Below are positions 3,655 through 64,000 of a stretch of DNA of 64,000 nucleotides, piece after piece. This stretch comes from a virus. The position numbers and the translations under genes are program-made. The stretch spans positions 1 to 64,000 of the IMG/VR virus record IMGVR_UViG_3300024221_000009; one strand, written 5' to 3'. The notes under the pieces are model-generated. The model saw only the letters and a list, made by a program, of their open reading frames with translations. It was not told the DNA's origin and made no database searches. The first letter of the stretch is position 1, and every line of letters begins with the position of its first letter.

Positions 3655-3907
3655 TTTAGAAGATTTTCCAGATTTTTCAGAAGAAAGCAACTGCAACCTT
3701 GAGAGTTTACAAGAAAATTCAAAGGTTACTATGATGAATATGATCTATAACGCGATTATGAGTAATGAAGATAGAGCAATAGGAAGTGATACTTCTCCAA
3801 GCGAAAAAGTAGAAGCTCTTAATAATATAATAGATTTTTTCGTAAGCTGTGAAGAATATGAAAAGTGTTCTAATATTAAAAAAATCATCGATAAAATACA
3901 ATGCTAA
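3647..3907 (+). CDS. small protein with UVR-like 'EEYEKC' motif (paralogue 2)
   Basis: [20 protein letters not shown]. Confidence 0.6.
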
Positions 3908-4089
3908 AGATAGAGGTTAAAAAAGGAAATATCGAACAAGCTCTTAAATCTTATAAATATAAGGTAAACAGAACTAAGCAAAGACAAGCAATCAACGAAA
4001 AGAAAGAATATACAAAACCATCTGTCACCAAACGCAGAAAAATTCAAAAAGCAAAGTATATTCAAAAGAAATCTGAAGACAATTCTTAG
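3901..4089 (+). CDS. rpsU: phage-encoded ribosomal protein bS21
   Basis: 62 aa, basic; NIEQALK.YK.K...EYTKPSVTKR..IQKAKYIQ is the bS21 pattern, with a Bacteroidota-like KAxY C-terminus. Confidence 0.88.
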   Translation: MLKIEVKKGNIEQALKSYKYKVNRTKQRQAINEKKEYTKPSVTKRRKIQKAKYIQKKSEDNS

Positions 4090-8202: not shown

Positions 8203-8742
8203 ATGAAGTTTATAAAAACATTTGAAGATTGGAACAATGTTTCACCTGAATTAAAAGCTCACATCGAAGAAGGATTAGATCTTACTAATTCATTCTTTCG
8301 TTTAGGAAGTGATGCATATTCTAAATTGTTTGAAGAAGTAAAACAATACTGGGATAAAAACAATATAATATTAAAAGGTCCTTCAGGATGGATGGCTAAA
8401 AATTTAGACGTAGGTACTTCAGCATTATATACTCCACGTGGCGGTAAAACTATTAAAGTTAAATTAGACTCTCCAGAAAGAGGAGGTAAAAAGAAATTTA
8501 TAGTATATAGAGACGGAGGAAGAAAAGATAAAGAAGGAAACATTCTTGCAAAGAAAGTAGAATGGGGAGATCCTAATCTTTCTGTAAAAAACGATGATCC
8601 TGGAAAGGCTGCTAGTTTTTGGGCAAGACATGGATGTGATAAAGCAGCTAAAATGGATCCTATGAAAGCAGGATTCTGGGCATGTTATGGGCCTACATTA
8701 TTTGGAAAACAACTTGGCTTAAAAAGTGATCAACCATGGTAG
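8203..8742 (+). CDS. conserved phage protein (F.ARH.C...FW.C type) with capsid-targeting-like N-terminus
   Basis: MKFIKTFEDW start; KKVEWGDP...SFWARHGCD...AGFWAC. Confidence 0.6.
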   Translation: MKFIKTFEDWNNVSPELKAHIEEGLDLTNSFFRLGSDAYSKLFEEVKQYWDKNNIILKGPSGWMAKNLDVGTSALYTPRGGKTIKVKLDSPERGGKKKFIVYRDGGRKDKEGNILAKKVEWGDPNLSVKNDDPGKAASFWARHGCDKAAKMDPMKAGFWACYGPTLFGKQLGLKSDQPW

Positions 8743-9148: not shown

Positions 9149-9871
9149 ATGGCAAAATTAAAATCATTTGAACAGTTTTTATCTGAAATGGATAGAACTG
9201 AAGAAATTCAACAAGACGTTGTTGAATTAGGAGCTCCAGATGAAAAAGGGTCTGAAGAAGCACAAGCTAAAGCAGAAACTGTACAATCTGAAAGAGACGA
9301 AGTTAAGGAATTAACAGAAACTGAAGAAACTGATGTTAAAGAAGGTAACGCCTTTGGAGATGCAGTTAGAAAAGCTAAAGAAGCTGGTGAGAAAGAATTC
9401 GAATTCGAAGGAGAAACTTACAAAGTAGAAGAATCTGAAGAGGTTGAAGCTGAAGAGGTTGAAGAAGAAGCAACTGAAGAAGAAGCTGTTGAAGAATCTG
9501 AAGAGGTTGAAGCTGAAGAGGTTGAAGAAGAAGCAACTGAAGAAGAAGCTGTTGAAGAATCTGAAGAGGTTGAAGCTGAAGAAGAATCACACAAATCAGT
9601 ATCTGAAATGTTAACAGAAGTTTATGAGTCTTGTAAAAACGAAGCTAAAGCTTACGAAGACGATGCACATGACGAACACACTGTAGAATCTTATATGAAA
9701 GAAAACGCTGCATTAATCGCTGCGTTAGCTGCAAAATCTTTAAAAGAAATGAAAGAAGAATACGCAGTAGAAGCTTATGAAGCTGCTTGTAATTCTATGA
9801 TAGAGTCTTACACGAATAAAATGAATGAAATGAAAGAATCTGATAGCGCACATGACGCTGAAGAAGCTTAA
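9149..9871 (+). CDS. highly acidic internal head/scaffold-like protein
   Basis: MAKLKSFEQFLSE start, Glu-rich repeats, GATATATA motif at 9106, terminator downstream. Confidence 0.6.
   Translation: MAKLKSFEQFLSEMDRTEEIQQDVVELGAPDEKGSEEAQAKAETVQSERDEVKELTETEETDVKEGNAFGDAVRKAKEAGEKEFEFEGETYKVEESEEVEAEEVEEEATEEEAVEESEEVEAEEVEEEATEEEAVEESEEVEAEEESHKSVSEMLTEVYESCKNEAKAYEDDAHDEHTVESYMKENAALIAALAAKSLKEMKEEYAVEAYEAACNSMIESYTNKMNEMKESDSAHDAEEA
9428..9582 (+). repeat. 63-bp perfect tandem repeat, about 2.5 copies (EESEEVEAEEVEEEATEEEAV)
   Basis: Units 9428-9490 and 9491-9553, partial unit 9554-9582. Confidence 0.95.
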
Positions 9872-32483: not shown

Positions 32484-35400
32484 ATGAGTGCACAAAATTC
32501 AATATCTCAATTACTAGAACAGTTTCTAGAATTAAATACTAATTCTTTAGAAACTTTTAATCGTATTAATGAAGCGATTTCTACAGATAAACAAACAGTT
32601 ACTGTTGATTTATATGATCCATCAAATGAGGGTAGTGTAAAATCAGTACAGATACCTGCATTTGGTTATTTGAAAAGAGAAATTGAAAGACTTAATAAAA
32701 ACTTAGAGTCAATTACGAATGTTGATAAAGGAGGCGCAAATGTAAGATTAAAAGATGGTACATATAGAACATTATTTACATCTAAATTAAAAGGACCTTC
32801 GGCTCCTATTACATCATTAGCGGCACCAACTCAGTTTAATACAAAATCAAACGAATTTTTTGAAGACTTTTTAAATCCACTATTAACTATTAAATTAGAT
32901 GTTAGTGGTCAAATTCCTGTAGAAACTGAAAGAGTTTATATAGAAAGATTTATTTTTGATGGGTCAGATCCTTTAACTTTAGAAAGATTTAAAGAAGTAT
33001 ATAAAGGAGAAAGCGAAATAAGTCATTCTAAACTAGAATCAGATATTGCAGAAAATAATCTAAAACACTACGTTGATTCAGAGGTTATTGAATTACCAGT
33101 AAGATCAGTTCAATATTTTGGTAAATTTGACGTAATTAAAATAACTAATGAACAGAGATCACAGCTTGTTGATGGTATAACTCAAACAAAAACTATTAAG
33201 TTATTCACAGTTGATAAGTTAAGTTACTCAGATGCTTCTAAATCACTTAAAGACACTGAGGTTTTAAAAGTAAATGACTCTTTAGTTGTTAACTCTGGAA
33301 AACTTAGAACAAGATATTTAATTAAATCAATAGATAATTCAACTTCTCAAATAGAACTAGAATTAATTGAAGGGTATGAGTCTATTAAAGTAGGCACTCA
33401 AATGTTAAGTGTATATAGAGATGTTGATTCAGATTTAGATATAGAAATAAACGTTGGTTTTGATGAAAGACAGATAGTTTTTATAAAACCAATAGACGCT
33501 TTATCAAACATACCATCGGATGATTATTCTCCAGGGGTTTCTTTTTATTCAAATGAATTAATTATTAACGGAGCAGACGGTAGAAAACAAACTTTATCTT
33601 CTTATTATAGAGAAGAGGTTGCAGACTTTGGTCAATTTATTAAATCGTTAAATGTTGATTATATTCCACCATCAAGCGTTGGTGTAATGCCAAAATCTCC
33701 TACGGTTTCTGCAGAAAATTTAAAAGTTGTACAAATTAATAAACACTTAACTAATAATACAACAACACAAAAGATTCAAAGATTAAAATCTGATAAAATA
33801 GCTGAAGAGCAAAATTTAAAGAATTTAAATGAATCTATTAAGCAAAAGAAAACTTTACTAAGTACTAAAAAGTTTAAGTCTACTGTAGAAAGAGATAAAC
33901 AAAGAAATGAATTAAATTCTCAAATAGCTGTCAAAGCAGCATCTACTCAATTATATTCTTCTATTGTTTCTGAGATAAAAGCTTCTGCTGAATCTTCTGA
34001 TTTGAATACAGTTAGCCCTAAATTTAGAGTTAGAGGTTTTTGGCCAGTTCCGGATCCTATTAAAATCGGAGAAGGACTTTCACAAGAAGTAGTTCAATTT
34101 AAAATAAGATATAGATACGTTTCAACTTCTGGTAAAACTAGTCAAGTTGAACAAATAGAATTTAATGACAGTAGTAGTCAAACTTCTAAAACAGCTGCTT
34201 TTTCAAACTGGGTAGAGGTTGACGGTCCTGTTAGAAAAAGAGAAAAAGGAGAAGACGGTAAATATAAATGGATTACTGAAAGTGAAGAAGACGCACAGGC
34301 GGTAAACTTTAACTCTATAGACGTTCCTATTAATTCAGGAGAATTTGTTGAGGTAATGGTTAAATCAGTTTCTGAAGCAGGTTTCCCTGCAAATCCAGTG
34401 ACAAGCGATTGGTCAGATATTATAAAAGTAGAATTTCCTGAAGGAGAGCTTTCAACTGAATCTTTATCAGATTTAGTTTCTTCAAATAATTTAGATTCTG
34501 TAAAAGTAGATATTAATGATGATTTAACATCAGCCGGTGTATTTGAACACATTAGCGATAATTTTACAGCTGGAGATAAATATTTTGCACACTCTGCAAA
34601 TGCTTTAGCTTCTGGGTTTTTAACGCAAGAACAATCGCCAATATCAATATACGATAAATTACTAGAATTACAGAACGAAATTACGAGATTAAGATCTCAA
34701 ATAGAAGGTGCAATTGGAGAACTCACTGTTGAAATTATAGATGAAGATGGTAACGTTACTCCAGTTACAAATAATTCTAGAGTTAAATTATTCGCAGGAT
34801 ATTATACTGAAGAATTACCTGAAACTAATTACAAAGGGCATATTGTAACTAAAAACTTTAAAATTAAATTATCAAATAATCAAGGAGCAGATCTTGAATT
34901 AATCGCAAGAATACTAGGAGACACTTCTAAACCATCTTGGATTTCTTCAACAAATACTACATTTGGTCTTGGAAATGGATCAGTTGACACGGTAACAGCA
35001 TCAGATTCTTATTATACAAACGAAGGTAAATATGATTTAGTACCTATCGTTTATCAGAATCTTGAACTTGAAGATTTAGTATATGATTACTTTAATGAAG
35101 GACCTGAACAATCAACTCAGTTAAGAGGACAATTCATATATTCAAGATTTAAAAATATTGCAAACGACAATACTTTTTATATAGATGATCAAGCAAATGA
35201 TATACCAAATAATAAAAGTGGTTTTGATCTTTTTGAATATGGTGTACAAGAAACATACGGTATAACTGGAGTGACTGATGTTGGATCAAACGGATGTTAT
35301 GATTTTTCTGGTGTAAACTGGGTACCAAATGCTACAGCTGGAAACAACACTATAGATTATATTTGGAATGGTATTTGTAGAACCTCTACATCAGATCCTA

Positions 35401-36116
35401 TACTAAGTGATCCAATACCAATAGGATCAGTATATGGTTATGACGACGGTGTATTGGTACACGTAAATCACCCAGCTATTGTAGAAAATCCAGATTCTGA
35501 TATTGTAGATTTACAGTCTAACGGATTCTTTAGTATTCCTAAAACAGCATCACTTAGAGCTAACGAAATTAATGGTAAAAAACAAATACCTTTAAAATTA
35601 ACAGTAGATTCTGTAACAACGGATTCATCAAATCCATATAGAACATCTATTAAAACATCGTTTGAACCTAATGATCAATATTTATTAGGTGGAAAATCAT
35701 GTGGATCTTTCTTATATCTTTCGCCTCTAGATAATAAATCACATGTTGTGAATGCTAATAATAAATCTGGTAAAAAGGTTATAAGTGCAAACGGAAATAA
35801 TAGTGTAATAATAGATTTAGTTTTCCAATACAGAATGACTGATTATAATGGAGTTGGAGATACAGGTACTGGTAGAATTGCAGGAGCTATTGGAACAACA
35901 TACGAAAATTTAACTTATTCTAAAAATATAGGTATTGATATATTAGATTCACAAGATAAAGATTTTAAATTTGATTTAGAGGTTTTTGCAAAATACAAAA
36001 CAACTGGTAAAAATATAAATTCTATTAATTCTTCAATGTTATCTAACTTTATAAATACATCTGGAGCTTCCGGTGGAGGAATTGGAGGACAACAGTACAT
36101 TCAAGAACTAAGGTAA
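32484..36116 (+). CDS. large virion structural protein (1210 aa)
   Basis: Long ORF in the tail cluster; coiled coil plus beta-rich regions. Confidence 0.5.
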   Translation: MSAQNSISQLLEQFLELNTNSLETFNRINEAISTDKQTVTVDLYDPSNEGSVKSVQIPAFGYLKREIERLNKNLESITNVDKGGANVRLKDGTYRTLFTSKLKGPSAPITSLAAPTQFNTKSNEFFEDFLNPLLTIKLDVSGQIPVETERVYIERFIFDGSDPLTLERFKEVYKGESEISHSKLESDIAENNLKHYVDSEVIELPVRSVQYFGKFDVIKITNEQRSQLVDGITQTKTIKLFTVDKLSYSDASKSLKDTEVLKVNDSLVVNSGKLRTRYLIKSIDNSTSQIELELIEGYESIKVGTQMLSVYRDVDSDLDIEINVGFDERQIVFIKPIDALSNIPSDDYSPGVSFYSNELIINGADGRKQTLSSYYREEVADFGQFIKSLNVDYIPPSSVGVMPKSPTVSAENLKVVQINKHLTNNTTTQKIQRLKSDKIAEEQNLKNLNESIKQKKTLLSTKKFKSTVERDKQRNELNSQIAVKAASTQLYSSIVSEIKASAESSDLNTVSPKFRVRGFWPVPDPIKIGEGLSQEVVQFKIRYRYVSTSGKTSQVEQIEFNDSSSQTSKTAAFSNWVEVDGPVRKREKGEDGKYKWITESEEDAQAVNFNSIDVPINSGEFVEVMVKSVSEAGFPANPVTSDWSDIIKVEFPEGELSTESLSDLVSSNNLDSVKVDINDDLTSAGVFEHISDNFTAGDKYFAHSANALASGFLTQEQSPISIYDKLLELQNEITRLRSQIEGAIGELTVEIIDEDGNVTPVTNNSRVKLFAGYYTEELPETNYKGHIVTKNFKIKLSNNQGADLELIARILGDTSKPSWISSTNTTFGLGNGSVDTVTASDSYYTNEGKYDLVPIVYQNLELEDLVYDYFNEGPEQSTQLRGQFIYSRFKNIANDNTFYIDDQANDIPNNKSGFDLFEYGVQETYGITGVTDVGSNGCYDFSGVNWVPNATAGNNTIDYIWNGICRTSTSDPILSDPIPIGSVYGYDDGVLVHVNHPAIVENPDSDIVDLQSNGFFSIPKTASLRANEINGKKQIPLKLTVDSVTTDSSNPYRTSIKTSFEPNDQYLLGGKSCGSFLYLSPLDNKSHVVNANNKSGKKVISANGNNSVIIDLVFQYRMTDYNGVGDTGTGRIAGAIGTTYENLTYSKNIGIDILDSQDKDFKFDLEVFAKYKTTGKNINSINSSMLSNFINTSGASGGGIGGQQYIQELR

Positions 36117-53133: not shown

Positions 53134-54642
53134 TTGGTACTAACATTAACAGATGATAATCAATTTCTACGAATTGATGATGCTACTGAACTTGAGTTAG
53201 AACAGATTACAATCTCCCTTACAAAAAGAATTGAAAGTTGGAGATTTAATCCGTTAGTAAAACGAGGAGTGTGGGATGGTTATGTCTCTTATATTAAAGA
53301 TGACAAATGGATTCCAGCTGGACTATGGAGGCATGTTATACAAATTTGTAAAGATTATAAGATAGAGATTCAAATGAACGGAATAAAACGTTTAATTGAT
53401 CCAGATATTAACGCAGAAGCATTTGAAGAATGGGCTCTTAATTTCTTTAAAGGTGCTGAGATAACTCCAAGAGATTATCAAATAGAAACAGCATATAACA
53501 TACTTAAATTTAGAAAGTGTTTAGCGGAGTTGGCAACATCAGCTGGTAAAACTTTAATTAGTTTTATGACTGTTGCATATATGCTAGAAAAGAAAAAAGC
53601 TCAAAAAATATTATTTATAGTACCTAACGTATCTTTAGTTGTACAGGCCCATGAAGATTTTCATGAATATAATTACATGAATAAAGTTAATTTAAAGATT
53701 CAACAGATATATTCAGGTAAAAAAATTAAAAGTAATAAAAATATAATTATTGGTACATATCAATCTTTAGTAAAAAAAGATAAAGAATATTTTAGTCAAT
53801 TTGACGCTGTTTTAGTAGATGAAACTCACAAAGCAAAAAGCGCATCTATAAAAACAATATTACAAAAATGTACTAACGCAAAATATAAATTTGGTCTTTC
53901 AGGAACAATTCCTAAAGATGGATCTCTTGATAAATTAACTCTTATGAGCCAGACTGGTCCAGTTATTAGTGAAGTCAAAGCGGCTTTTCTACAAAAACAA
54001 GGACATATTGCAAAATGTTTGGTTAAAGTAATTCAAATGAACTATGCAACAGAAAATCAAAGACAAGCGTTTCAAGAGCTTGCGCAGAACAAATATGATA
54101 GAAAGGATGTTTTCCAACTTGAACAAAATTTTATTATTAATAACGAAGCACGTCTTGATTTTATCTCAAGCGTTATTTCCAGAGTACCCAGGAATAGCCT
54201 TGTCCTTTTTCACAGGATTGAACACGGTAAAAAATTATATGAAAAACTTAGACAAGAAAGCGATAAAAGAGTTTTTTATGTGGATGGCGGAACCAATACT
54301 GATATTAGAGAAGAATATAAAAAGAAAATGGAAGCCGGTGAAGAAGTTGTCATCGTTGCGTCCTATGGTACTTTCTCAACAGGGATCTCGATTAAAAAAA
54401 TACACAACATATTCTTTACGGAATCTTTTAAAAGTGAAGTGATTATCAGGCAATCAATAGGACGTGGTTTAAGGCAACATGAATCAAAGGACAAGGTTTT
54501 AATAATCGACTTTGTTGACGACATTAGAACGCAAGAGTGGGATAATTATCTATATAAACATGGTAAAGCTCGCCAGGCAATATATAAACAAGAAAAGTTT
54601 GATTATAATATTAAAATAGTCAATTTTGAAGGAGATATATAA
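53134..54642 (+). CDS. uvsW: UvsW-like SF2 DNA helicase (TTG start)
   Basis: PRDYQ, ATSAGKT, DETH, GLSGT, STGISIK, QSIGRGLR. Confidence 0.92.
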   Translation: MVLTLTDDNQFLRIDDATELELEQITISLTKRIESWRFNPLVKRGVWDGYVSYIKDDKWIPAGLWRHVIQICKDYKIEIQMNGIKRLIDPDINAEAFEEWALNFFKGAEITPRDYQIETAYNILKFRKCLAELATSAGKTLISFMTVAYMLEKKKAQKILFIVPNVSLVVQAHEDFHEYNYMNKVNLKIQQIYSGKKIKSNKNIIIGTYQSLVKKDKEYFSQFDAVLVDETHKAKSASIKTILQKCTNAKYKFGLSGTIPKDGSLDKLTLMSQTGPVISEVKAAFLQKQGHIAKCLVKVIQMNYATENQRQAFQELAQNKYDRKDVFQLEQNFIINNEARLDFISSVISRVPRNSLVLFHRIEHGKKLYEKLRQESDKRVFYVDGGTNTDIREEYKKKMEAGEEVVIVASYGTFSTGISIKKIHNIFFTESFKSEVIIRQSIGRGLRQHESKDKVLIIDFVDDIRTQEWDNYLYKHGKARQAIYKQEKFDYNIKIVNFEGDI

Positions 54643-54677
54643 GATATACGTAAATAAAATAAATAAAATTTATAAAA

Positions 54678-57098
54678 ATGGCAAAAATGAATAAAATCAG
54701 TTCTTTTCAAACTTTTTCTGAAGTAAGAGAGGCTGAAAATGCTGATAAACTACAACAAGAAAATCAAGCTAAAAGATTAGAGCTAACAGAAAGAATAGGT
54801 AAAATATTAGATGAAATGGAAATAACATCTTTTGAAGACTTAGACGAAGAAGTTAGAGATCAATTAGTAGAAAAAACGTTCGGATTAGTTAAAGAAGGAG
54901 ATAAAACAAAAGTTTCTAAAAAAGAAATTAAAATGCATCTGGATATGTTCCAAGCAGGAGACATCGATGGTAATGATTTATCACAAGCTATTTCTGCAAT
55001 TATATTCGGAGAAGTAAAAGGACCGGGTATGGAATCTAAAGATTCTGAACAGGTTTCAGAAGCAACTGTTGTTATGGACGCAATAAACCCTGATGATAAA
55101 GATTTCTTAAAATTCTTAAAAAAGAATAAAGTTAAAGTAATTGACACTGTAAAATCAGGCCCAAGTGGACATCCTGAAATTACAATGCAAGGAAAAAGAA
55201 AAGATCTTGAAGCAGTATTAGCTGACGGTGAATTAGGATGGGATGATCCTGGTTTAGCAGAATTTATTGAAGAATCAATAAACATTTCAGAAGCAGTAAT
55301 AGTTACTGGTAGAAGAGACGCTAAAAAAGTTTTAACAGCATACACTAAATTTTTCCAAAAATATCCAGCATTAGCTGATAGGAGATTTGCAGGTTTACAT
55401 TTAGGAGCAATCAAATCCTTAATGGTTTCTGCATTAACAGATGCTAATTTTCATAGAGAATCAGCAGCGTGCGGAAAGTCTATTAAAGGAGCAAAGCTTC
55501 AACCTGTTTTTATTAAGCCAATGGAATTAAATAAAACAGAAATTAAAATACCTGTTGGTAAAGTAGCATCTATTTTAGATGATAATGCATCTCTTATTTC
55601 TGGTGCAGCCGGCTTTTCTGGTTTAGGTATTGCTGAAGGAACAGCATTATACTTAGATTCTCTTAAATATGTTAAAGAAGCAGAAGCAGTTATTGCATGT
55701 TTTAATTCTACGTTTGAAAGTGAAGTTACTGACGTAACAGAAGGTAATGCATTTTTAGGAGCTAGAGCTAAGGCTATTGAAGAAGATGCTGAAGAATTTG
55801 AATTTAACGGTAAAAAATATCCAGTAATTAAAGAATCAGAAGAAGTTACTGAATCAGCCGAACCAAAGTGTAATAATAAAAAAGGACATTTATATAAGCA
55901 AATTGATAAGGACGGAACGGTAGAATGCGTGCACTGTGGTCTAAGAAATTCATTAAGCGAATCAGAGGTTAATGAAGCTAAATCTTTTAAAAATACTGAA
56001 GATTTTGAAGCATTTTTAAAGGAAATCGATGCTATGCCAGAAAGAGCAGTTAGAAAGATAATGGGTAAAGAATATATCGATACTCCTGGTTTTTATGAAG
56101 ATGAAAAGGATGATTATGATGATGTAATTGACTTCATGATTTCAAACATGGGTGCAGATATTTATCACCAATTAGAACAGTGGTGGGAAAACAATGTTCA
56201 AGAATCAGCAGTTACTGAAGCTAAATTTGTAAAAGATTTTGATAAAGATGTTTTAGATGCTGAAACCAAAGCAGATATAACAACTTACTACCCTTCTGCT
56301 AAATTCTTTATAGGTAAATCAACCCACTTCTTCGGAGAATTAGATAAAAATTTATTTTTTAAAGCATATTATAAAGATTATGTAAAGAAGGCTGGTGGTA
56401 AAATCGATGGTGATTTTAAAATTGTAATGATATATTCTGAAAAAGGTAGAAATTTTGTACCTTTATTTACTAGAGAAGTTACTGAATCAGTGGTTACTGA
56501 AGCTAAAATTAATTCTGACGAAGAGTTTAAAGAATATGCTACAACTGTTTTACAAAAAGCGTTTGGTGAAGATTATGACGAAGCAAAAGCAAACGAAGTT
56601 ATTGATGGTATTTTAGCAAAAGTTGACGGAGATTACGGCGCTGCTGTAGGAATGTTAACATCTTCATTAGGAGAATCAGTAGTTACTGAAAAAACATATA
56701 ATAAAAAGTCTTTAATGAAAGCAATGAAAGCCGATGATGGTATGATACAATTAGGCAATGGTCAAGAATATGTTATCTACGCTTACGGTAATGGTAATGA
56801 TGATAACGACAATATGTGGGGAGATAAATCAATCTTTGCGTTAGACCAAGACGGCGAAGAGCATGAAATTGAATATTCTGATATTGTAAGTTATAATGAA
56901 GCTAACGCTGATGGAACTATTTCAGATGATGAAGACGAAAAAAGAGAAGAACTTTTAAATAGAGTTAAAGAACAAATGGAAGAGCTATTAGCATCTGCTG
57001 AATTTGATGCTAAAGAAATTGGTGGTTCTTTTAGATCTCCTGGTATTATGTTTGATATTAGAAAACAACTTGATAAGCAAGTTAAAAAGTTTAAATAA
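54678..57098 (+). CDS. modular polyprotein 1, putative protease-processed head cargo
   Basis: About 11 unrelated segments separated by ES-x-V-[TNS]-E-A linkers; late motif at 54634. Confidence 0.7.
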   Translation: MAKMNKISSFQTFSEVREAENADKLQQENQAKRLELTERIGKILDEMEITSFEDLDEEVRDQLVEKTFGLVKEGDKTKVSKKEIKMHLDMFQAGDIDGNDLSQAISAIIFGEVKGPGMESKDSEQVSEATVVMDAINPDDKDFLKFLKKNKVKVIDTVKSGPSGHPEITMQGKRKDLEAVLADGELGWDDPGLAEFIEESINISEAVIVTGRRDAKKVLTAYTKFFQKYPALADRRFAGLHLGAIKSLMVSALTDANFHRESAACGKSIKGAKLQPVFIKPMELNKTEIKIPVGKVASILDDNASLISGAAGFSGLGIAEGTALYLDSLKYVKEAEAVIACFNSTFESEVTDVTEGNAFLGARAKAIEEDAEEFEFNGKKYPVIKESEEVTESAEPKCNNKKGHLYKQIDKDGTVECVHCGLRNSLSESEVNEAKSFKNTEDFEAFLKEIDAMPERAVRKIMGKEYIDTPGFYEDEKDDYDDVIDFMISNMGADIYHQLEQWWENNVQESAVTEAKFVKDFDKDVLDAETKADITTYYPSAKFFIGKSTHFFGELDKNLFFKAYYKDYVKKAGGKIDGDFKIVMIYSEKGRNFVPLFTREVTESVVTEAKINSDEEFKEYATTVLQKAFGEDYDEAKANEVIDGILAKVDGDYGAAVGMLTSSLGESVVTEKTYNKKSLMKAMKADDGMIQLGNGQEYVIYAYGNGNDDNDNMWGDKSIFALDQDGEEHEIEYSDIVSYNEANADGTISDDEDEKREELLNRVKEQMEELLASAEFDAKEIGGSFRSPGIMFDIRKQLDKQVKKFK
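55833..56693 (+). repeat. dispersed in-frame linker repeat, consensus GAATCAGNRGTTAMTGAAGCTAAA
   Basis: Copies at 55833, 55959, 56202, 56484, 56673; weaker copies at 55032, 55272, 55716; also 61633. Confidence 0.85.
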
Positions 57099-57103
57099 AA
57101 ATA

Positions 57104-57144
57104 GAAAAAAAGATGACCTGGATTTTTCCGGGTCAAATCTTTTT
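57104..57144. terminator. intrinsic terminator, possibly bidirectional
   Basis: TGACCTGGA-tttt-TCCGGGTCA stem flanked by an A-tract and a T-tract. Confidence 0.7.
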
Positions 57145-57158
57145 ATTATATTAGTAGT

Positions 57159-57461
57159 ATGAAGAAAGCAAAATTATATGAAGAGTTTATCAACGAAGAA
57201 ATCTATTTAACATATAGTGAAATCGTAGGTTATCAATTTGATAAGTTTTTAGAATCATATTTTAAACTAAATAAAGATAACAAAACAGTTTACGATAAAA
57301 AAGAAGATTTTACGTATGGTTTTAGAAAAGGATCTAAAACTGCACATTGGAAATATGATCACGATAATTTCGAATTACACCACAGTGAAAAAGAATTTCA
57401 TGTCTTAGGTCTTATAAATTTTTATAAACAAGCATCAAAGGGACATCCCTGGTCTAAATAA
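57159..57461 (+). CDS. small protein with capsid-targeting-like N-terminus
   Basis: MKKAKLYEEFINE start. Confidence 0.65.
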   Translation: MKKAKLYEEFINEEIYLTYSEIVGYQFDKFLESYFKLNKDNKTVYDKKEDFTYGFRKGSKTAHWKYDHDNFELHHSEKEFHVLGLINFYKQASKGHPWSK

Positions 57462-57471
57462 AACATACGCA

Positions 57472-58755
57472 ATGAAAATATTATCATTTAAAGATTTCTT
57501 AATAGAAAGAGAAAATAAAGAAGTATTAGACTCTAAATTAATTTTAGAAGGTGGGGCAGCAGGTCACATGTCACATCCATTTGATGAAAAAGATTTGACA
57601 TTTGCAGATTTTAAAAAGATAGTAACTGCTGGTCTTCAAGGTGAATTAAACTTTGAGGAAGAAGCAACTGAAAAAACGGATGGACAAAATGTATTTGCAA
57701 CAGTTCAAGATGGAGAAGTAAAATTTGCCAGAAATAAAACTGAATTAGCAAATCCAATGGACTTGGCTACTTTTAAGAATAAGTTTGAAGGACATCCAAG
57801 TAAATTAGTACAAGATACTTTTCAATTTGCTGCAGAAGATTTAGCAAACTCATTAAATAAATTATCCCCTAAAGATTTAGAAGTTTTTGATAATGGTAAA
57901 AACTGGATGAACATGGAGTTAATTTACTCTAAGAATCCAAACGTTATCTACTATGACCGCGATGTTATTCAATTTCATGGTATAAAGAAAACTGATGGTG
58001 AAGGTAATACTATTGGAGAAGATAACAAACCAGCAAGATCAATTGCGAAAGCAATGCAAGATCTTAAAATTAATGTTGGTAAAACATTTACAGTTATCCC
58101 ACCTCAAATTATTAAATTAGGTAAAGATTTAGAATTTGATAAAAATCAATCTAAATTTATAAAACAAATAGAAGCGTTAAGAGATCGTTATAAATTAACA
58201 GACGCTGATGAAGTTTCTAGATATCATGAAATGTGGTGGAGAGAAACAATAGATACAAATTTCCCTGATTTACAACAAGACTATAAAGAAGGTTTATTAT
58301 TAAGATGGGCTTATGGAAATAAGAAGTCTTTAAATATGAGAAGTCTTGCAAAGGAAATAGGAAAAGATGAAGCAGCTTCTGTTAAGAAATTCGACAAAGA
58401 AGATGTTAAAAAGAAATATAAAGAAAACATTAGACCTTTTGAAGATTTATTCTTAGAACTAGGATCTATAATTCTTAAAAATGCTTCTAATTTTGTAGCA
58501 GCAAATCCAGACAAGGAAATGCAAAGATTACATAATCAAATTAGAAGTGAATCAGAAAAAATTAAAAAAGGCGGAGGAGAAGCTCAAATTGCAAAAGTAG
58601 AAGCTGAACTTGCTAGGTTAGAAAGAATTGGTGGTGTAGAATCTATTATACCAACTGAAGGAATAGTCTTTGTATATAAAGGAAAAACAATGAAATTAAC
58701 AGGTACGTTTGCAGCCATTAATCAATTAATGGGAATTATAAAGTACGGAAGATAA
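57472..58755 (+). CDS. ATP-dependent ligase-like nucleotidyltransferase with capsid-targeting-like leader
   Basis: MKILSFKDFLIE..LILE|GGAAGHM; motif I TEKTDG, motif IV EGIVF, motif V MKL. Confidence 0.6.
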   Translation: MKILSFKDFLIERENKEVLDSKLILEGGAAGHMSHPFDEKDLTFADFKKIVTAGLQGELNFEEEATEKTDGQNVFATVQDGEVKFARNKTELANPMDLATFKNKFEGHPSKLVQDTFQFAAEDLANSLNKLSPKDLEVFDNGKNWMNMELIYSKNPNVIYYDRDVIQFHGIKKTDGEGNTIGEDNKPARSIAKAMQDLKINVGKTFTVIPPQIIKLGKDLEFDKNQSKFIKQIEALRDRYKLTDADEVSRYHEMWWRETIDTNFPDLQQDYKEGLLLRWAYGNKKSLNMRSLAKEIGKDEAASVKKFDKEDVKKKYKENIRPFEDLFLELGSIILKNASNFVAANPDKEMQRLHNQIRSESEKIKKGGGEAQIAKVEAELARLERIGGVESIIPTEGIVFVYKGKTMKLTGTFAAINQLMGIIKYGR

Positions 58756-58765
58756 ATAATATAAT

Positions 58766-60649
58766 ATGGCACTTAAAAAATTAAGAGAACATTTTCAAGA
58801 AACTAATATTAATGAGTTTCATAGATTGTTAAAAAATAGAGTAATGGTTGTTGAAAAAATTTCAGCACCATCTTTTTATGTTAGAAGAAATGAAGAAAAA
58901 TTTGAATTTTATAAATCTTCAAAATCTAAACCTCTAACAATAATAGATAGAACTATTATGTCTCTTTACGAAGTTGCCATTAAACATATACAAAGTTTAA
59001 ATCCTAAAAGTAAAAAACAATTACCAGATAATTATAGATTTGGTTTTGAATATTTACCAGAAGAAAAGGTTTCTGAATATGTATACACTAAAATACCTAA
59101 AAATACTTTAATATTAACGCACATCCACCAACTAGGTGAAAACGGAAAAGTAAAAAAGACAATTATAGATCCTTTAATTATAAAAAAATGGGCTACCGTA
59201 TTAGAAGTACAACAACAAGAAGTTATATTTGACGGAACTTTAGATTCAACTCAAAAAGAAAAGCTTATTAATTTATTAGAAATGAATGATAAAGCTTTTT
59301 CTGAGGCATTTGACTACGATATAGAAACGGATAAATTAGTTTCTTTCACAAAAGAAATATACAAGATATTTAATATTAATTCAACATCAAGCGTTCTTCA
59401 AGAGGATTTAGAATCTGAAATAGATGGTTTAGTTTTAAATTTTGCTGAAGGTAAAAAAATACAATCTTATAAATTAGAAGATTTTATTAGAAAACCTTTA
59501 AATGAAATTAGAGAAGGTTCTCATACATATCAAATAGCAATCGCAGATATATTAGAATATTTTGTTAATTATAATTTTTCAGAAACAAATTTAGTTGAAG
59601 AAAATGCAGAAAAAAGATATATAGAATTAATCTCAGCAGCATTTAACAAATACGTTAATAAAAACGCAACAAGATATATTGGAGTTAATTTCCAAAATGC
59701 AGAATTTTCTTCTTCTAAATTATTTAATTTAAATACAACATTCATTAAAAACGAAAAAACATTAACACATGTTTCAAATGAAGTTTTATCAAGTTTATTT
59801 AAAATAACATTAGGTACTTTTAGAAAGCATAAAACGAAAGCAACAGATATATTAAATGATGATATGATATCTCAATTAAATAATATAGTTGATAAAATCA
59901 ATGATGTTGTTTTTCTAGAAAAAGCAGACGAAAATTCTATATATAATTATAAGAATTTTATGATGCATAACAATATAAAAAGCGAAGTAACTTTAAATGA
60001 AGCGCTAACTGTTAAGCACGCTGAGCAAGGTAAAGAATTAGTAAATATGTTCGTTGGTAGATTTCAGCCATTCACATTAGGACACGCCAAAGTTTTAGAA
60101 GCAATTCACAAACAAAATGGATATCCAGTTATTGTATTTTTAATTAAAGCAAAATCTAAAAAGAAAGGTGACGAATTTAGAAAACCTTATTCTGAAGATT
60201 TACAAATTAAAATGTTTAAACAAGTTCAAAAGCAATATAAATTCTTAAAAGAAATTATAGTTCTTGATAGAGGTGCAATTGATTATATGTTTAACGAATT
60301 AAGACCTAAATACGAGCCAGTACTTTGGGGAACAGGATCAGACAGAATGACTTCTTATGGATATCAAGTAAATAATGATTCTTATAGAGATCAATTAAAT
60401 GTAAGATCCGATTTTGGTTTATTTGAAATACCAAGAACAGATAATAATATTTCAGCAACACAAGTAAGAAACGCAATGTTAGACGGTGATGAATCTTTAT
60501 TTAAAAAGACTACCCCAAAGGCAATTCATAAAATGTATGATGTTTTAAAGTCTGAACTTGAAAAATCTATGGAGATGGTTGCAGCTTCTAAAGTTGTATC
60601 AGAATCCGTTATGACATTTCAAGAATATATGAATAAATTAAAATCATAA
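58766..60649 (+). CDS. degenerate ligase-like domain fused to a HIGH-family (cytidylyl/adenylyl) nucleotidyltransferase
   Basis: VVEKIS and IDGLVL..YKL in the N-terminal part; VGRFQPFTLGH, GSDR and ISATQVR in the C-terminal part. Confidence 0.7.
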   Translation: MALKKLREHFQETNINEFHRLLKNRVMVVEKISAPSFYVRRNEEKFEFYKSSKSKPLTIIDRTIMSLYEVAIKHIQSLNPKSKKQLPDNYRFGFEYLPEEKVSEYVYTKIPKNTLILTHIHQLGENGKVKKTIIDPLIIKKWATVLEVQQQEVIFDGTLDSTQKEKLINLLEMNDKAFSEAFDYDIETDKLVSFTKEIYKIFNINSTSSVLQEDLESEIDGLVLNFAEGKKIQSYKLEDFIRKPLNEIREGSHTYQIAIADILEYFVNYNFSETNLVEENAEKRYIELISAAFNKYVNKNATRYIGVNFQNAEFSSSKLFNLNTTFIKNEKTLTHVSNEVLSSLFKITLGTFRKHKTKATDILNDDMISQLNNIVDKINDVVFLEKADENSIYNYKNFMMHNNIKSEVTLNEALTVKHAEQGKELVNMFVGRFQPFTLGHAKVLEAIHKQNGYPVIVFLIKAKSKKKGDEFRKPYSEDLQIKMFKQVQKQYKFLKEIIVLDRGAIDYMFNELRPKYEPVLWGTGSDRMTSYGYQVNNDSYRDQLNVRSDFGLFEIPRTDNNISATQVRNAMLDGDESLFKKTTPKAIHKMYDVLKSELEKSMEMVAASKVVSESVMTFQEYMNKLKS

Positions 60650-60696
60650 ATAAATAAAGAATATATAATCTTATAATATAAAACAAAATAAAAGTC

Positions 60697-62907
60697 ATGG
60701 ATAAATCACACTTTAATCAAGATGATAGAGTAGATGAAGGGAAAATAACAATAAAAAGACGTTATACTGAAAACTACCCTGCAAAAACTGTTGGTAAATC
60801 AGCAAAAATAAGAAACAAAATGTTGGAAGCAATTTCGGACGGGGCTATTACCCAAGAAGAATTTGATTCTATCATAGCAGAATTATCATCTGATTCAAAA
60901 AGATGGTTATCTCGTAATTCTAGGTTATTTAATATTACAGAGGCTGGAATAACATTAACAGGGTTAGGTAGAAAGATTTTATCTCAAATTACAGTAAATG
61001 AAAAAACAGAAAAGAATCCAGAAATATGGGTTCCTGGAAAATTTGATAAAGAAGTTTCTAAATTATCAGCTGATGAATTAACACTAGACAATATAAAAAA
61101 ATTATCAAAAAAACATAGAGTATTTTTACAAGATGCAATAGCGTATGTTGAATATAGCTTCGATGTTGATATTGTAGAAAATAAAGAAAATAATATGAAA
61201 ACAAAATTAGTATTTGAATCTTTCGGAGATTTTGTAAACTCATTAGATAAAAATAATGAAGAATTAAACGAAGGCACTAGAGGCCAATTCGGAATGATTG
61301 ATAAAAAAGGAAATATACAGTCAGTATATATGCATTATGATTCATATCCTGAAAACATTCTACCATTAATAAAAAGAGGTTACGGAAACTCTAAAAAAGT
61401 ACAAGCAGTTATTGATAGAGGAGATACTTCTGGATTAGATAAAACAGTTGATACTATGAATTTCTATGAAGATGGTAGAAAGCCAACTTCAGGTAAAAAA
61501 GCAGACATTGCACGTTATATTAAAAAAGCAGCTGATGATGGTGGAGCAGAATACATCTATTTATATGATGAGTCTGATAAAACTTGGTACATGGTTGATG
61601 TTTATGGAGACATGCAATTAGTTCCTGCATTTGAATCAGTAATTAATGAAGCTGTAAACGCAACTGCTTATATTAAAGCTGGTAAATTAGGTTATAATGA
61701 TCAATTCTTAGCAAAGAGATCTTTATCATGGACATTATCAGTTGACTTAGGTCTAAAAGCATCTGATGAATTTGTCGGACCATGGTTAGGATTCGATTAT
61801 GTATCATTATATGCTATTGGTAAAAAAGGAGGAACAATTATTGATGATGCCTTAACTGGTAAATATACTTATGACGAATTAAAAGCAGCAGCAGCTGATT
61901 TTTTAGGTATTAAAGAATCAGAAGAAGCTTTAGGTGAATCAGAAGATACTGAACTTAATGAAGCATTTAAATCTTCTAAATTAAGAAATTTAGTAAATAT
62001 GGATCAATCACAACGTGATGGATATGGTAAAGCAAGAAATTTAGCAGCTGCTATTTATGGATTATCAAAACTAAAATTAGATAAAATTGAAGATTCTTCT
62101 TTAATTGATGTAGATCCTAAAGAAGCTTATAAAAAATATCAAAACAATAGAGACTATTTAGTTTTTTATATAGTAGACAACGAAAAAGAAAATGAATACA
62201 GCAAAGGTTCATTTACATCATTAATAAAACCAGGTATTTTAGCTTTAACCAGAGGAAAAGACTTTTTATCAGTTCAATATGTTCAATCTAGAAATAGATC
62301 AGTTGATCGTACTTTAGGAAAAGATGATGGTAATGCAATTGGTGGTAATAAAAGATATTCTGGATATGATGCATCGGGTATTTCTTCAGTTGTAAGAGCT
62401 TCTAAATTAGCAGACAGAGCAATTGTAATTGATATTGTTAATGGTGGCGAAACTTCAAAAGAAGAAAGAAACGAAAGAGCAAGAGCAAAAGAAGGAGCTT
62501 TAGCTTTTAAATCTGACGCAGACTTTAAGAAAGCTAACAAGGCAAGATACCAAGAAATCTTATCAACTAAAGCTTCTAAGTTACCTCTTGATAAAATGGT
62601 TAATGACGCTATTGATGATTTAGGAAATCAAATTAAAGATGGTCTTAAGGCTAATAAAAAGACAGAATACGGAGAGCTTAAAATTGGAGAAAATTCTAAA
62701 GGTAGAGCAGTTAAAATCACAGATGCTTCAAACCACATGGGTAGAATCTTATCTGATTATCAAAGATATGTTGAATACATGGTAAAAGCAGAAGAAGAAA
62801 AAGGTAGAGATTATTCATCAGGATATTACGAAAAGAATTCAAAACAATACGCTAAAGATATTAAAGATGCAGTTAAAAAAATACCTACGTTCGATTACGC
62901 TTGGTAA
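60697..62907 (+). CDS. modular polyprotein 2
   Basis: Segments delimited by VDE|G, VNE|K, LNE|G, ESVINE|A, ES..ELNE|A; late motif at 60659. Confidence 0.65.
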   Translation: MDKSHFNQDDRVDEGKITIKRRYTENYPAKTVGKSAKIRNKMLEAISDGAITQEEFDSIIAELSSDSKRWLSRNSRLFNITEAGITLTGLGRKILSQITVNEKTEKNPEIWVPGKFDKEVSKLSADELTLDNIKKLSKKHRVFLQDAIAYVEYSFDVDIVENKENNMKTKLVFESFGDFVNSLDKNNEELNEGTRGQFGMIDKKGNIQSVYMHYDSYPENILPLIKRGYGNSKKVQAVIDRGDTSGLDKTVDTMNFYEDGRKPTSGKKADIARYIKKAADDGGAEYIYLYDESDKTWYMVDVYGDMQLVPAFESVINEAVNATAYIKAGKLGYNDQFLAKRSLSWTLSVDLGLKASDEFVGPWLGFDYVSLYAIGKKGGTIIDDALTGKYTYDELKAAAADFLGIKESEEALGESEDTELNEAFKSSKLRNLVNMDQSQRDGYGKARNLAAAIYGLSKLKLDKIEDSSLIDVDPKEAYKKYQNNRDYLVFYIVDNEKENEYSKGSFTSLIKPGILALTRGKDFLSVQYVQSRNRSVDRTLGKDDGNAIGGNKRYSGYDASGISSVVRASKLADRAIVIDIVNGGETSKEERNERARAKEGALAFKSDADFKKANKARYQEILSTKASKLPLDKMVNDAIDDLGNQIKDGLKANKKTEYGELKIGENSKGRAVKITDASNHMGRILSDYQRYVEYMVKAEEEKGRDYSSGYYEKNSKQYAKDIKDAVKKIPTFDYAW

Positions 62908-62908
62908 T

Positions 62909-64000
62909 ATGAAAACAATGTATACATCATTTAGCGAATTTTCAAGAGGGATTAAAGAAAACATTTCACCAGAAAGTATTGGAGGAATGGGAGATGTTAT
63001 ATTACCGAATGGTGATGAACTAGGTTCTGGCGATATTCCTTCTGAAGAAGATGATGAAAATAAAGAAAAAATAAATACAAAATCTATGGATTTTAATAGT
63101 TTTATAAACAAATCAACGGTTAGTAAATTAGTCATTGAGAAATCAGCAACAGATACTCTAGCGGATGATGTTTCTGGAGAATTATATATTGCAAAACTTA
63201 AAGGCAAGTCAGCTACTATTAAAGCAACGACTACGACAAAGACATGGGATGATGGAGTCCCGGTATTAAAGTATTTAGCAAGAGGTAAAAGTAAATCAAT
63301 GTCTTTTGATTTATATCAAAGACCTTTTCAAGTGGTACACGACTATGCACATGGCTGGTGGTACTTCACAGATGGTGGAAAATGGTACGGATTGCACGTA
63401 AGCGACGGTTATAGTGAAGCTGCTGATTTACCATTCGATATGCAAATTCCAGAAAACAAAATACAAGAAGGTGTTATGTCTGACATTCACCAAATGATAG
63501 GTAATCATAAAACTTTTGATTCATTTCAAAAAGAATTCTTTAAAGAATATGGAGATAATAAAGCTATGAAAAAAACCAAAGACTTTTTAGAATGGCTAGA
63601 AGCTTTATATTCAGATTCACAATATGCAGTATCTGAGGCAAGACCAGGTACTTACACGTACCAAATGGATAGTGAAGGAAATACTAGAAAAGTATTACCG
63701 CCATATTATGGTAATTCAGAACTTCATGATAAATCAAAAGAACTATTTAAAAAACCATGGAAAAAGCTTAGTGATAAACAACAAGATGAAGTTTTAGCAG
63801 CCTTTGAAATAGTTGAAGCAAGATCAATTGCAAAAATACAAAAAGAATATGGAAGTGTAGTAACTGATATGAAAGATCTTGTTAAAGATTATGTAAAAAT
63901 GTCAGATGATAATTCTGAAAAAGCTAAGACAAGACAATTACTTATAGATTTAACTTCTAAGAAAAAATCATTAATGTCAGAATTAGATGACGCAGTAGGT
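62909..64000 (+). CDS. modular polyprotein 3, 3'-truncated by the window (not in ORF track)
   Basis: ATG 62909, open for 364 codons to the window end; MKTMYTSFSEF..IKE; IQE|G, VSE|A, IVE|A. Confidence 0.75.
   Translation, partial: MKTMYTSFSEFSRGIKENISPESIGGMGDVILPNGDELGSGDIPSEEDDENKEKINTKSMDFNSFINKSTVSKLVIEKSATDTLADDVSGELYIAKLKGKSATIKATTTTKTWDDGVPVLKYLARGKSKSMSFDLYQRPFQVVHDYAHGWWYFTDGGKWYGLHVSDGYSEAADLPFDMQIPENKIQEGVMSDIHQMIGNHKTFDSFQKEFFKEYGDNKAMKKTKDFLEWLEALYSDSQYAVSEARPGTYTYQMDSEGNTRKVLPPYYGNSELHDKSKELFKKPWKKLSDKQQDEVLAAFEIVEARSIAKIQKEYGSVVTDMKDLVKDYVKMSDDNSEKAKTRQLLIDLTSKKKSLMSELDDAVG

Follow-up and report, generated by a model that had tools for sequence, protein, structure and literature searches.

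The stretch analysed here (the window) comprises the first 64,000 nucleotides of a viral fragment of 91,386 bp, IMG/VR record IMGVR_UViG_3300024221_000009 (the contig). At positions 54678-57098 on its plus strand lies a gene, array 1, for a protein of 806 amino acids (aa) and isoelectric point (pI) 4.7, P0001, in which small modules are joined by variants of one short linker. A first-pass annotation made from the letters alone had read this open reading frame (ORF) as a string of about 11 unrelated beads separated by nine protease-site-like linkers. The ORF and all nine linkers (beginning at 55032, 55272, 55716, 55833, 55959, 56202, 56484, 56673 and 56889) lie where it placed them, and the beads are mutually dissimilar, with every pairwise BLASTP E-value among the ten modules above 0.5. 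Their number is corrected to about ten, of 29-140 aa each. The layout of array 1 is given below, where an arrow marks the presumed cut between residues P1 and P1' and pLDDT is the predicted local distance difference test of the structure model.

54678-55031 (+): module N, aa 1-118; the leader, always first; aa 9-13 are an invariant S-F-x-x-F, and aa 10-46 form a long helix
55032-55064 (+): linker 1, ESKDSEQVSE↓A; pLDDT below 50 at aa 111-126
55065-55271 (+): module B, aa 130-198; alpha/beta, pI 4.9, varying in position in relatives and also found in the second array
55272-55295 (+): linker 2, ESINISE↓A; P1 Glu205 at least 90% conserved
55296-55715 (+): module C, aa 207-346; a helical, basic (pI 9.5) core module, pLDDT about 90
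55716-55745 (+): linker 3, ESEVTDVTE↓G; Glu355 at least 90% conserved; predicted to lie in a helix, where confidence dips
55746-55832 (+): module D, aa 357-385; helix and beta-hairpin, always after C
55833-55856 (+): linker 4, ESEEVTE↓S, recognised by its motif
55857-55958 (+): module Z, aa 394-427; zinc-ribbon-like, Cys-x4-His ... Cys-x2-Cys, poorly modelled
55959-55979 (+): linker 5, (SLSE↓)SEVNE↓A, a tandem site; homology of variant RNA contigs begins exactly at 55959, and truncated variants stop here
55980-56201 (+): module E, aa 435-508; helical and acidic; in the relative P0227 it follows a short capsid targeting sequence (CTS)
56202-56222 (+): linker 6, ESAVTE↓A; loose end of an RNA contig at 56201
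56223-56483 (+): module F, aa 516-602; beta-rich, basic (pI 9.05), in the second array in relatives
56484-56504 (+): linker 7, (EVTE↓)SVVTE↓A; Glu608 at least 90% conserved
56505-56672 (+): module G, aa 610-665; three-helix bundle, the best conserved of the modules; most relatives end with it
56673-56693 (+): linker 8, ESVVTE↓K; homology of an RNA contig begins at 56673
56694-56888 (+): module H, aa 673-737; small, beta-rich (from the model and homologue matches)
56889-56903 (+): linker 9, SYNE↓A; pLDDT below 50 at aa 739-748
56904-57098 (+): module I, aa 743-806; helical, followed by the stop codon (from the model and homologue matches)

The linkers are present beyond chance, because the pattern E-S-x(0-8)-[VILMY]-[TSN]-E-[AGSK] occurs in eight copies in P0001 against a mean of 0.105 and a maximum of 2 in 5000 shuffles, and its core, [VILM][TSN]E[AGS], occurs nine times where 0.64 would be expected from the contig's other 26.5 thousand residues (Poisson P = 3e-8). 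Elsewhere in the 91-kb contig the strict linker motif is found twice in the ORF at 60697-62907, once in the ORF at 62867-64390 and in one marginal case.

An AlphaFold2 model of P0001, built with a 40-sequence alignment, reaches a pLDDT of 69 and a predicted template modelling score of 0.30 and shows no fixed arrangement between domains. The pLDDT falls below 50 at aa 111-126, 199-205, 350-352, 385-438, 507-517, 601-608, 665-674 and 739-748, which are the linkers. The earlier view of each bead as a self-contained domain is not borne out for every module, the small D and the zinc-ribbon module being poorly modelled. Linker 3 falls, with a dip in confidence, within a long predicted C-D helix. Modules C and D, on either side of linker 3, always occur together in homologues. 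Module pI is mostly 4.1-5.1, with C, Z and F basic.

Linkers as candidate prohead-protease sites

The T4 prohead protease gp21 cleaves after Glu in L/I-x-E (PMC9026906). Across the array family the linker consensus is E-S-V-V-(T/N)-E-A, with a core made up of a hydrophobic P3 (V/I/L), a small polar P2 (T/N/S), Glu at P1 and Ala, Ser or Gly at P1' (Lys at linker 8). All nine linkers of P0001 hold a (V/I/Y)-(T/S/N)-E site, each in a low-confidence region of the model. The resemblance to prohead-protease sites proposed in the first-pass annotation is upheld by the sequences, in that the linkers fit the gp21 rule and the contig carries a gp21-type protease gene:

contig 89684-91386, beyond the window: S77 (gp21-type) protease fused to an acidic scaffold; PF03420 at 89717-90091, 46.6 bits, above the cut-off

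The scaffold part contains repeated CTS-like Y-x-x-Y-(L/V)-x-E motifs and long acidic E/V/T repeats. Head genes run in the order portal, small ORF, protease-scaffold, followed in relatives by a gp23-type capsid protein; PF07068 (Gp23) has no match in the window's own contig because the contig stops within the protease-scaffold gene. S77 was the only protease searched for in the 91-kb contig, and was found; no other protease was seen. The leading Glu of the linker also usually follows a hydrophobic-x pair in P0001 (IEE↓S, IKE↓S, LSE↓S, VQE↓S, VTE↓S, LGE↓S), and the linker may be a double site that frees a pentapeptide.

At three junctions that were aligned by their flanking modules the P1 Glu is nearly invariant (at least 90%), whereas P2, P4 and the length of the linker are variable, the C/D junction reading for instance VTEG, MNEG, LEER, INER or IAEG in homologues. 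In distant relatives the linker DNA and length differ, and the hydrophobic P3, the T/N/S at P2 and above all the P1 Glu stay. This retention of the Glu alongside a variable P2, P4 and length indicates that the peptide itself is under selection, beyond any constraint on DNA identity. The earlier reading had been staked on this Glu being retained in homologues, and at the aligned junctions it nearly always is.

The same short motif also occurs in head proteins, at putative maturation sites:

Relatives G001 and G005, capsid protein N-terminus: M-A-N-LINE↓A at residues 4-8 and GINE↓S at residues 23-27
The 462-kb uncultured phage LR756500, capsid protein N-terminus: LINE↓A
The contig's own genome, G001 and LR756500, just past the protease domain (protease/scaffold junction): RVNE↓S or RVNE↓A
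G001 and LR756500, scaffold tail: VNE↓S and VTE↓A
Cultured Tenacibaculum phage PTm1, first 55 residues of the capsid protein: QITE↓S and IINE↓S
PTm1, after the protease domain: AISE↓S
PTm1, scaffold: several LNE↓S and VNE↓A

For two motif sites within the first 30 aa of the capsid protein, P = 3e-4.

The N-terminal leader and possible capsid targeting

In T4 the CTS, MKTYQEFIAE (PMC8442874), is cut after E10. Its targeting depends critically on residues 4 and 7, its processing on residues 8 and 10 (PMC9026906). The N-terminal logo of the array family shows an invariant S-F-x-x-F at residues 9-13 and then a long helix, and the aromatic pair of module N, at i and i+3, has the spacing of T4 residues 4 and 7. 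Shorter CTS-like sequences are found at the termini of other ORFs in the contig and are kept in relatives. The pattern aromatic-x-[DEQT]-aromatic-[ILVMS]-x-E has 12 copies in the contig's 29.4 thousand residues, of which five lie at ORF residues 6-7, where about 0.3 would be expected. In the relatives P0191 and P0227, array modules stand behind a short canonical CTS leader. The CTS-like candidates are:

8203-8742 (+): ORF with a CTS-like N-terminus (MKFIKTFEDW); ATATATAA late-type motif upstream
9149-9871 (+): ORF with a CTS-like N-terminus (MAKLKSFEQFLSE); ATATATAA late-type motif upstream
57159-57461 (+): ORF of 100 aa with a CTS-like N-terminus, MKKAKLYEEFINE↓, from the CTS pattern scan
57472-58755 (+): ORF of 427 aa with a CTS-like N-terminus, MKILSFKDFLIE↓; relatives retain MKIYTNFTEFLNE↓
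contig 89273-89614, beyond the window: ORF of 113 aa between portal and protease, starting MKKVRLYEDFIAE, almost the T4 CTS (CTS scan)

Promoter motif and transcription

Array 1 is flanked by two putative transcription signals:

54634-54643 (+): late-type promoter-like motif (G-ATATATAA), overlapping the helicase stop codon, 44 nt before the ATG
57114-57135 (+): terminator-like hairpin, 9 pairs and then a T-run, just past the array 1 ORF

Copies of [AG]ATATATAA number 18 on the plus strand versus 3 on the minus strand, and 12 of the 18 lie no more than 60 nt upstream of an ORF start, against 6% expected. The motif precedes the portal gene, the small core ORF, the protease-scaffold gene, four tail-region genes, two CTS-bearing ORFs and both arrays, and is not found before the SSB, primase, UvsY and helicase genes. 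Seventeen relatives keep it 43-48 nt before the array gene. Two seawater metatranscriptomes have RNA contigs that start at 54663 and 54666, 12-15 nt ahead of the ATG, without bridging from the helicase, which is a weak hint in the same direction; these runs consist of contigs only and do not allow genes to be ranked by RNA depth. The upstream motif suggests that the array 1 gene may be expressed late, together with the head genes. The T4 late promoter TATAAATA is not enriched (20 copies, 19 expected), and a sigma-70 promoter scan gave no enrichment.

A second upstream element, TTATATTAGTA(G/C)TAT(AATTAAAAC), is present at window positions 2368, 6273, 22089 and 57146 and at contig position 66884. 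It follows T-rich hairpins, stands about 32-34 nt before the ORFs at 2400, 6307 and 22123, and probably represents a further class of promoter. Since its copy at 57146 extends into the start codon of the ORF at 57159, the start or the transcript of that ORF may be mis-assigned.

A proposed cargo polyprotein

We lean, with caution, towards the view that P0001 is a cargo polyprotein which is directed into a T4-type capsid and which the prohead protease cuts into small internal proteins. Hypothetically, the array protein would be made late in infection, and module N, with its S-F-x-x-F and long helix, would act by analogy with the T4 CTS to bring P0001 into the core of the assembling prohead. In each (V/I/L)-(T/N/S)-E linker the S77 (gp21-type) protease would then cut behind the Glu, and probably also behind that of the preceding hydrophobic-x-E↓S. 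The products, some ten small proteins of 3-15 kDa, would be kept in the head and exit with the DNA. The linkers also double as in-frame joints for the gain, loss and reordering of modules among related phages. Targeting, cleavage, head retention, ejection and module function are what we infer from the sequences; the suggestion that the modules act as effectors, in anti-defence or host takeover, comes solely from the analogy with T4 IPI and Alt and from the rapid turnover of modules. Read as protease sites, the linkers would make sense of the conservation of their peptide, of the match to head maturation sites in four lineages, of the leader, of the promoter motif and of the bead structure.

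A number of observations weigh against this proposal. The array leader has no conserved hydrophobic-x-E cut directly after it, unlike the T4 CTS, and so the whole 118-aa module N may act as the capsid address. A predicted helix at aa 332-368 passes through linker 3 (aa 347-356), and a cut at LINE↓A would take only 7 residues off the capsid protein. Most modules are acidic, unlike the basic internal proteins of T4. The gene is surrounded by replication genes (SSB, primase, UvsY, helicase), and its promoter-like motif overlaps the helicase stop codon, so the conservation of that motif could be partly coding. No homologue of the family was found in cultured phages by megablast and tblastn with the whole protein and with modules B and G against 50,697 phage records. 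Finally, because of the codon bias and the recombination breakpoints at the linkers, both described below, linker conservation could partly serve shuffling and not cleavage.

Module shuffling and linkers as recombination joints

A word-indexed search gave more than 630 homologues of P0001, and an exhaustive HMMER search gave 971, counted as representatives of 50% clusters. Matched stretches start and stop at linkers, and the order of modules varies. Given the 971 clusters at 50% identity and their presence in marine metatranscriptomes, the arrays are probably common and expressed in nature. They are not universal among relatives that share the capsid protein and protease, as ESVV(T/N)EA is absent from LR756500. 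Module N begins within the first five residues in all 167 homologues that have it. A core of N, C-D and G is conserved in constant order, with G, found in 211 of 260 homologues, as the usual C-terminus, while modules B, Z, E, F, H and I and about 180 more segment clusters are gained and lost. This turnover amounts to about 190 segment clusters among 261 proteins.

In close relatives, whose shared parts are 86-93% identical, module E, or Z-E-F, is missing precisely from linker to linker (P0003, P0007). Homology to variant marine RNA contigs begins or ends at the linker edges 55959, 56201, 56507 and 56673; a joint at 56225-56483 has short sides and is not relied upon. The order helicase, array 1, 57472 homologue, 58766 homologue, array 2 is kept in relatives, and modules are exchanged between the two arrays: ten relatives have a phrog_1987 module, otherwise seen in array 2, within array 1, and B and F are then in array 2. 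Three variants at least 99% identical to aa 1-431 (P0269, P0277 and P0279), on contigs of up to 80 kb, end two residues past linker 5 (...SLSEEQLER-stop), through either a frameshift at linker 5 or a split into two genes. The Ser codon of the linkers is TCA in 7 of 7 cases, compared with about 37% across the ORF, and two linkers are identical at 22 of 24 bases.

These patterns can also be accommodated by a protein that is never cut, a flexible multi-domain chain acting as a hub or multi-valent binder in the infected cell, with linkers that are mainly recombination joints and whose likeness to protease sites is secondary. Deletions and swaps running exactly from linker to linker, RNA contigs that lose homology at linker edges, modules that hop between arrays 1 and 2, the shared linker DNA and codon choice, and the place of the gene amid replication genes are all in keeping with such a chain. 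However, P3, P2 and above all the P1 Glu persist in distant relatives despite different linker DNA and length, and the same tetrapeptide stands at the capsid N-terminus and at the protease/scaffold junction, sites where there is no shuffling. An uncleaved chain would also leave the CTS-like leader and the late-type promoter motif unexplained, and we regard it as rather unlikely. Under the cargo-polyprotein proposal, the role as recombination joint is taken as a second, compatible role of the linkers and not as an alternative.

Module identity and neighbouring linker proteins

Neither P0001 nor any single module has a significant match in Pfam, PHROG, NCBIfam or, by sequence, the PDB. With Foldseek the full P0001 model has no match at E <= 0.001 in the PDB or BFVD; BFVD yields as a lead the small T4-like 'frd-gp32 intergenic 8.8 kDa' proteins at probability 1.0, the matching module not being identified. 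The model of the C-D unit (pLDDT 84) has no Foldseek match, its best VIA Z of 4.9 corresponding to a generic helical bundle, and the ESM Atlas gave no usable match. Family matches of module Z (zf-CHCC, Zn_ribbon_RPB9, YheV) are weak, as is the match of module B to phrog_5922. In 70 diverse relatives (48 thousand residues) only six sporadic weak Pfam matches occur, together with matches to several PHROG families of small uncharacterised proteins, among them phrog_1987 in 20 relatives and, clearly, phrog_5922 in 7.

Linker motifs are also found in other proteins, most of them just downstream of array 1:

58766-60649 (+): ORF of 627 aa; N-terminal ~410 aa without known family, TLNE↓A at aa 410, NMN-adenylyltransferase-like domain at 428-569, VSE↓S at 611, CTS-like C-terminal tail
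60697-62907 (+): second array, 736 aa, with sites at aa 80, 190, 316 and 420; late-type motif at 60660
62867-64000 (+), continuing to 64390 past the window: third linker protein, 507 aa, with VSE↓A at aa 255 and ESVNE↓S at aa 388
32484-36116 (+): ORF of 1210 aa in the tail-gene region, without family match; RINE↓A at residues 28-31, like an N-terminal propeptide site

In array 2 a phrog_1987 module (aa 193-302) sits exactly between LNE↓G and ESVINE↓A. The match runs from profile position 2 and starts exactly at the P1' residue of LNE↓G, so a cut there would recreate a free-standing protein. The BFVD matches to small T4-like early ORFs point the same way and suggest that some modules are akin to free-standing small phage proteins. 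The C-terminal module of the third linker protein is joined to module E in P0227. In the ORF at 58766 the domain matches TIGR00125 at 35.8 bits, NMNAT models match weakly, and homologues keep the CTS-like tail (AE↓S...FLTFDDFIKNI); its product is possibly an enzyme that a C-terminal address directs to the head. For the ORF at 57472, a K-T-D-G motif had prompted the idea of an RNA ligase, which family searches did not support.

What the modules are bears on a further possibility, that P0001 is a scaffold-like component of the prohead core, targeted and cut as proposed above, whose fragments are mostly expelled during maturation and do not serve as cargo. The T4 core proteins gp22, gp67 and gp68 are cut into many pieces, which leave the head (PMC9026906). 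Most array modules are acidic, like the phage's own scaffold, in which CTS-like Y-x-x-Y-hydrophobic-x-E repeats are found, and the order of N, C-D and G is conserved. We nevertheless hold a core role to be decidedly unlikely: the modules are folded domains of 6-15 kDa, some of them related to free-standing small phage proteins, their quick turnover is unlike that of a size-determining scaffold, and a neighbour with the same address includes an enzyme-like domain. It is highly improbable that P0001 is a cytoplasmic polyprotein cut outside the capsid by another Glu-specific protease of host or phage, since, although the conserved P1 Glu needs merely a Glu-specific endopeptidase and the gene lies beside replication genes, the linker motif is common to head maturation sites, the gene combines a late-type promoter motif with a CTS-like leader, and no other protease was seen in the 91-kb contig, where only S77 was searched for.

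Genome, probable host and implications

The contig has a GC content of 30.5% and is about 28% complete according to CheckV, which implies a genome of at least some 300 kb. In close relatives the capsid protein has its best match in LR756500 (49% identity), followed by the capsid proteins of the Lak megaphages of Prevotella and of PTm1. The window also holds a gene for bS21:

3901-4089 (+): bS21 ORF, 62 aa; PF01165, 41.6 bits, above the cut-off

Giant freshwater phages of Bacteroidetes, 293-331 kb in size, carry bS21 genes as well (PMC9723584); there bS21 lies on the opposite strand within the head gene block, whereas here it is far from that block. The stretch is present in seawater metatranscriptome libraries. 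Because of the capsid kinship, bS21 and the seawater libraries, the source is taken to be an uncultured marine giant phage with a T4-type head, probably with a Bacteroidota host.

In a broader and more tentative form, which we judge to fall somewhat short of probable, giant phages of marine Bacteroidota would use a plug-and-play polyprotein, in which one capsid address is followed by a string of small proteins, the linker is both protease site and recombination joint, and takeover or anti-defence sets are delivered in equal numbers with the DNA. If so, a polyprotein strategy would operate in a tailed double-stranded DNA (dsDNA) phage, and the ~190 module clusters in the 261 proteins sampled would represent a large reservoir of small injected effectors. 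Confirmation of cleavage and packaging would extend the principle of T4 CTS and gp21 from single proteins to shuffled polyprotein arrays and account for the loading of many different small proteins through a single address in giant phages. Hundreds of anonymous domains would then become candidates for the first proteins entering the cell, in anti-defence or takeover, and the linker rule would offer a simple predictor of head cargo in uncultured T4-like phages.

Comparison with known systems

The first-pass annotation had supposed that nothing comparable is described, which is too strong, as T4 internal proteins, head proteins of phiKZ and SPN3US, and polyvalent proteins are precedents for the principle. 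In the literature searched we found no description of a shuffled array of anonymous small modules with one linker for a protease acting in trans.

The closest parallels are with T4, in which the internal proteins IPI, IPII, IPIII and Alt bear a CTS and are processed by gp21 (PMC9026906, PMC8442874). Both systems have a T4-type head and an S77 protease with cutting after Glu in hydrophobic-x-E (predicted for the arrays), an N-terminal address (putative for the arrays) with two aromatics three apart, and cargo genes outside the head cluster, and in both varied non-structural proteins are placed in the head, here by prediction. In T4, however, there is one gene per cargo, with its own 10-residue CTS and a single cut, whereas here about ten modules share one 118-aa leader and have stereotyped, possibly double sites. 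The internal proteins of T4 are basic, while most modules here are acidic; the modules are shuffled between genes and genomes at the putative cut sites.

Heads of phiKZ, 201phi2-1 and SPN3US contain many non-structural proteins, and processing is by a diverged gp21 homologue that recognises three residues and cuts after the Glu, some substrates being cut multiply (PMC10052503, PMC9026906). In these phages N-terminal propeptides are removed, leaving one mature protein per gene, and no array of unrelated shuffled modules with junction cut sites is reported there; in P0001 putative sites stand at every junction along the chain.

Polyvalent proteins combine 2-15 unrelated domains in variable architectures, are predicted to be packaged with DNA and have been likened to viral polyproteins, with proteolytic release proposed (Iyer et al. 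2017, PMC5512222). The arrays are like them in joining many unrelated domains in one phage polypeptide of variable architecture. The zincin-like peptidase hub, ART, ArdC, kinases, NTases and embedded peptidases of polyvalent proteins were not found in P0001 or in 70 diverse relatives; the arrays have instead tiny anonymous modules, a protease presumed to act in trans and one short linker motif at every junction.

RNA-virus polyproteins resemble the arrays in being one product with stereotyped linker sites for a viral protease, as predicted here. The protease and domains are unrelated, and the purpose differs: in RNA viruses the polyprotein serves genome expression, whereas we propose that in these phages it serves the loading of a dsDNA phage capsid.

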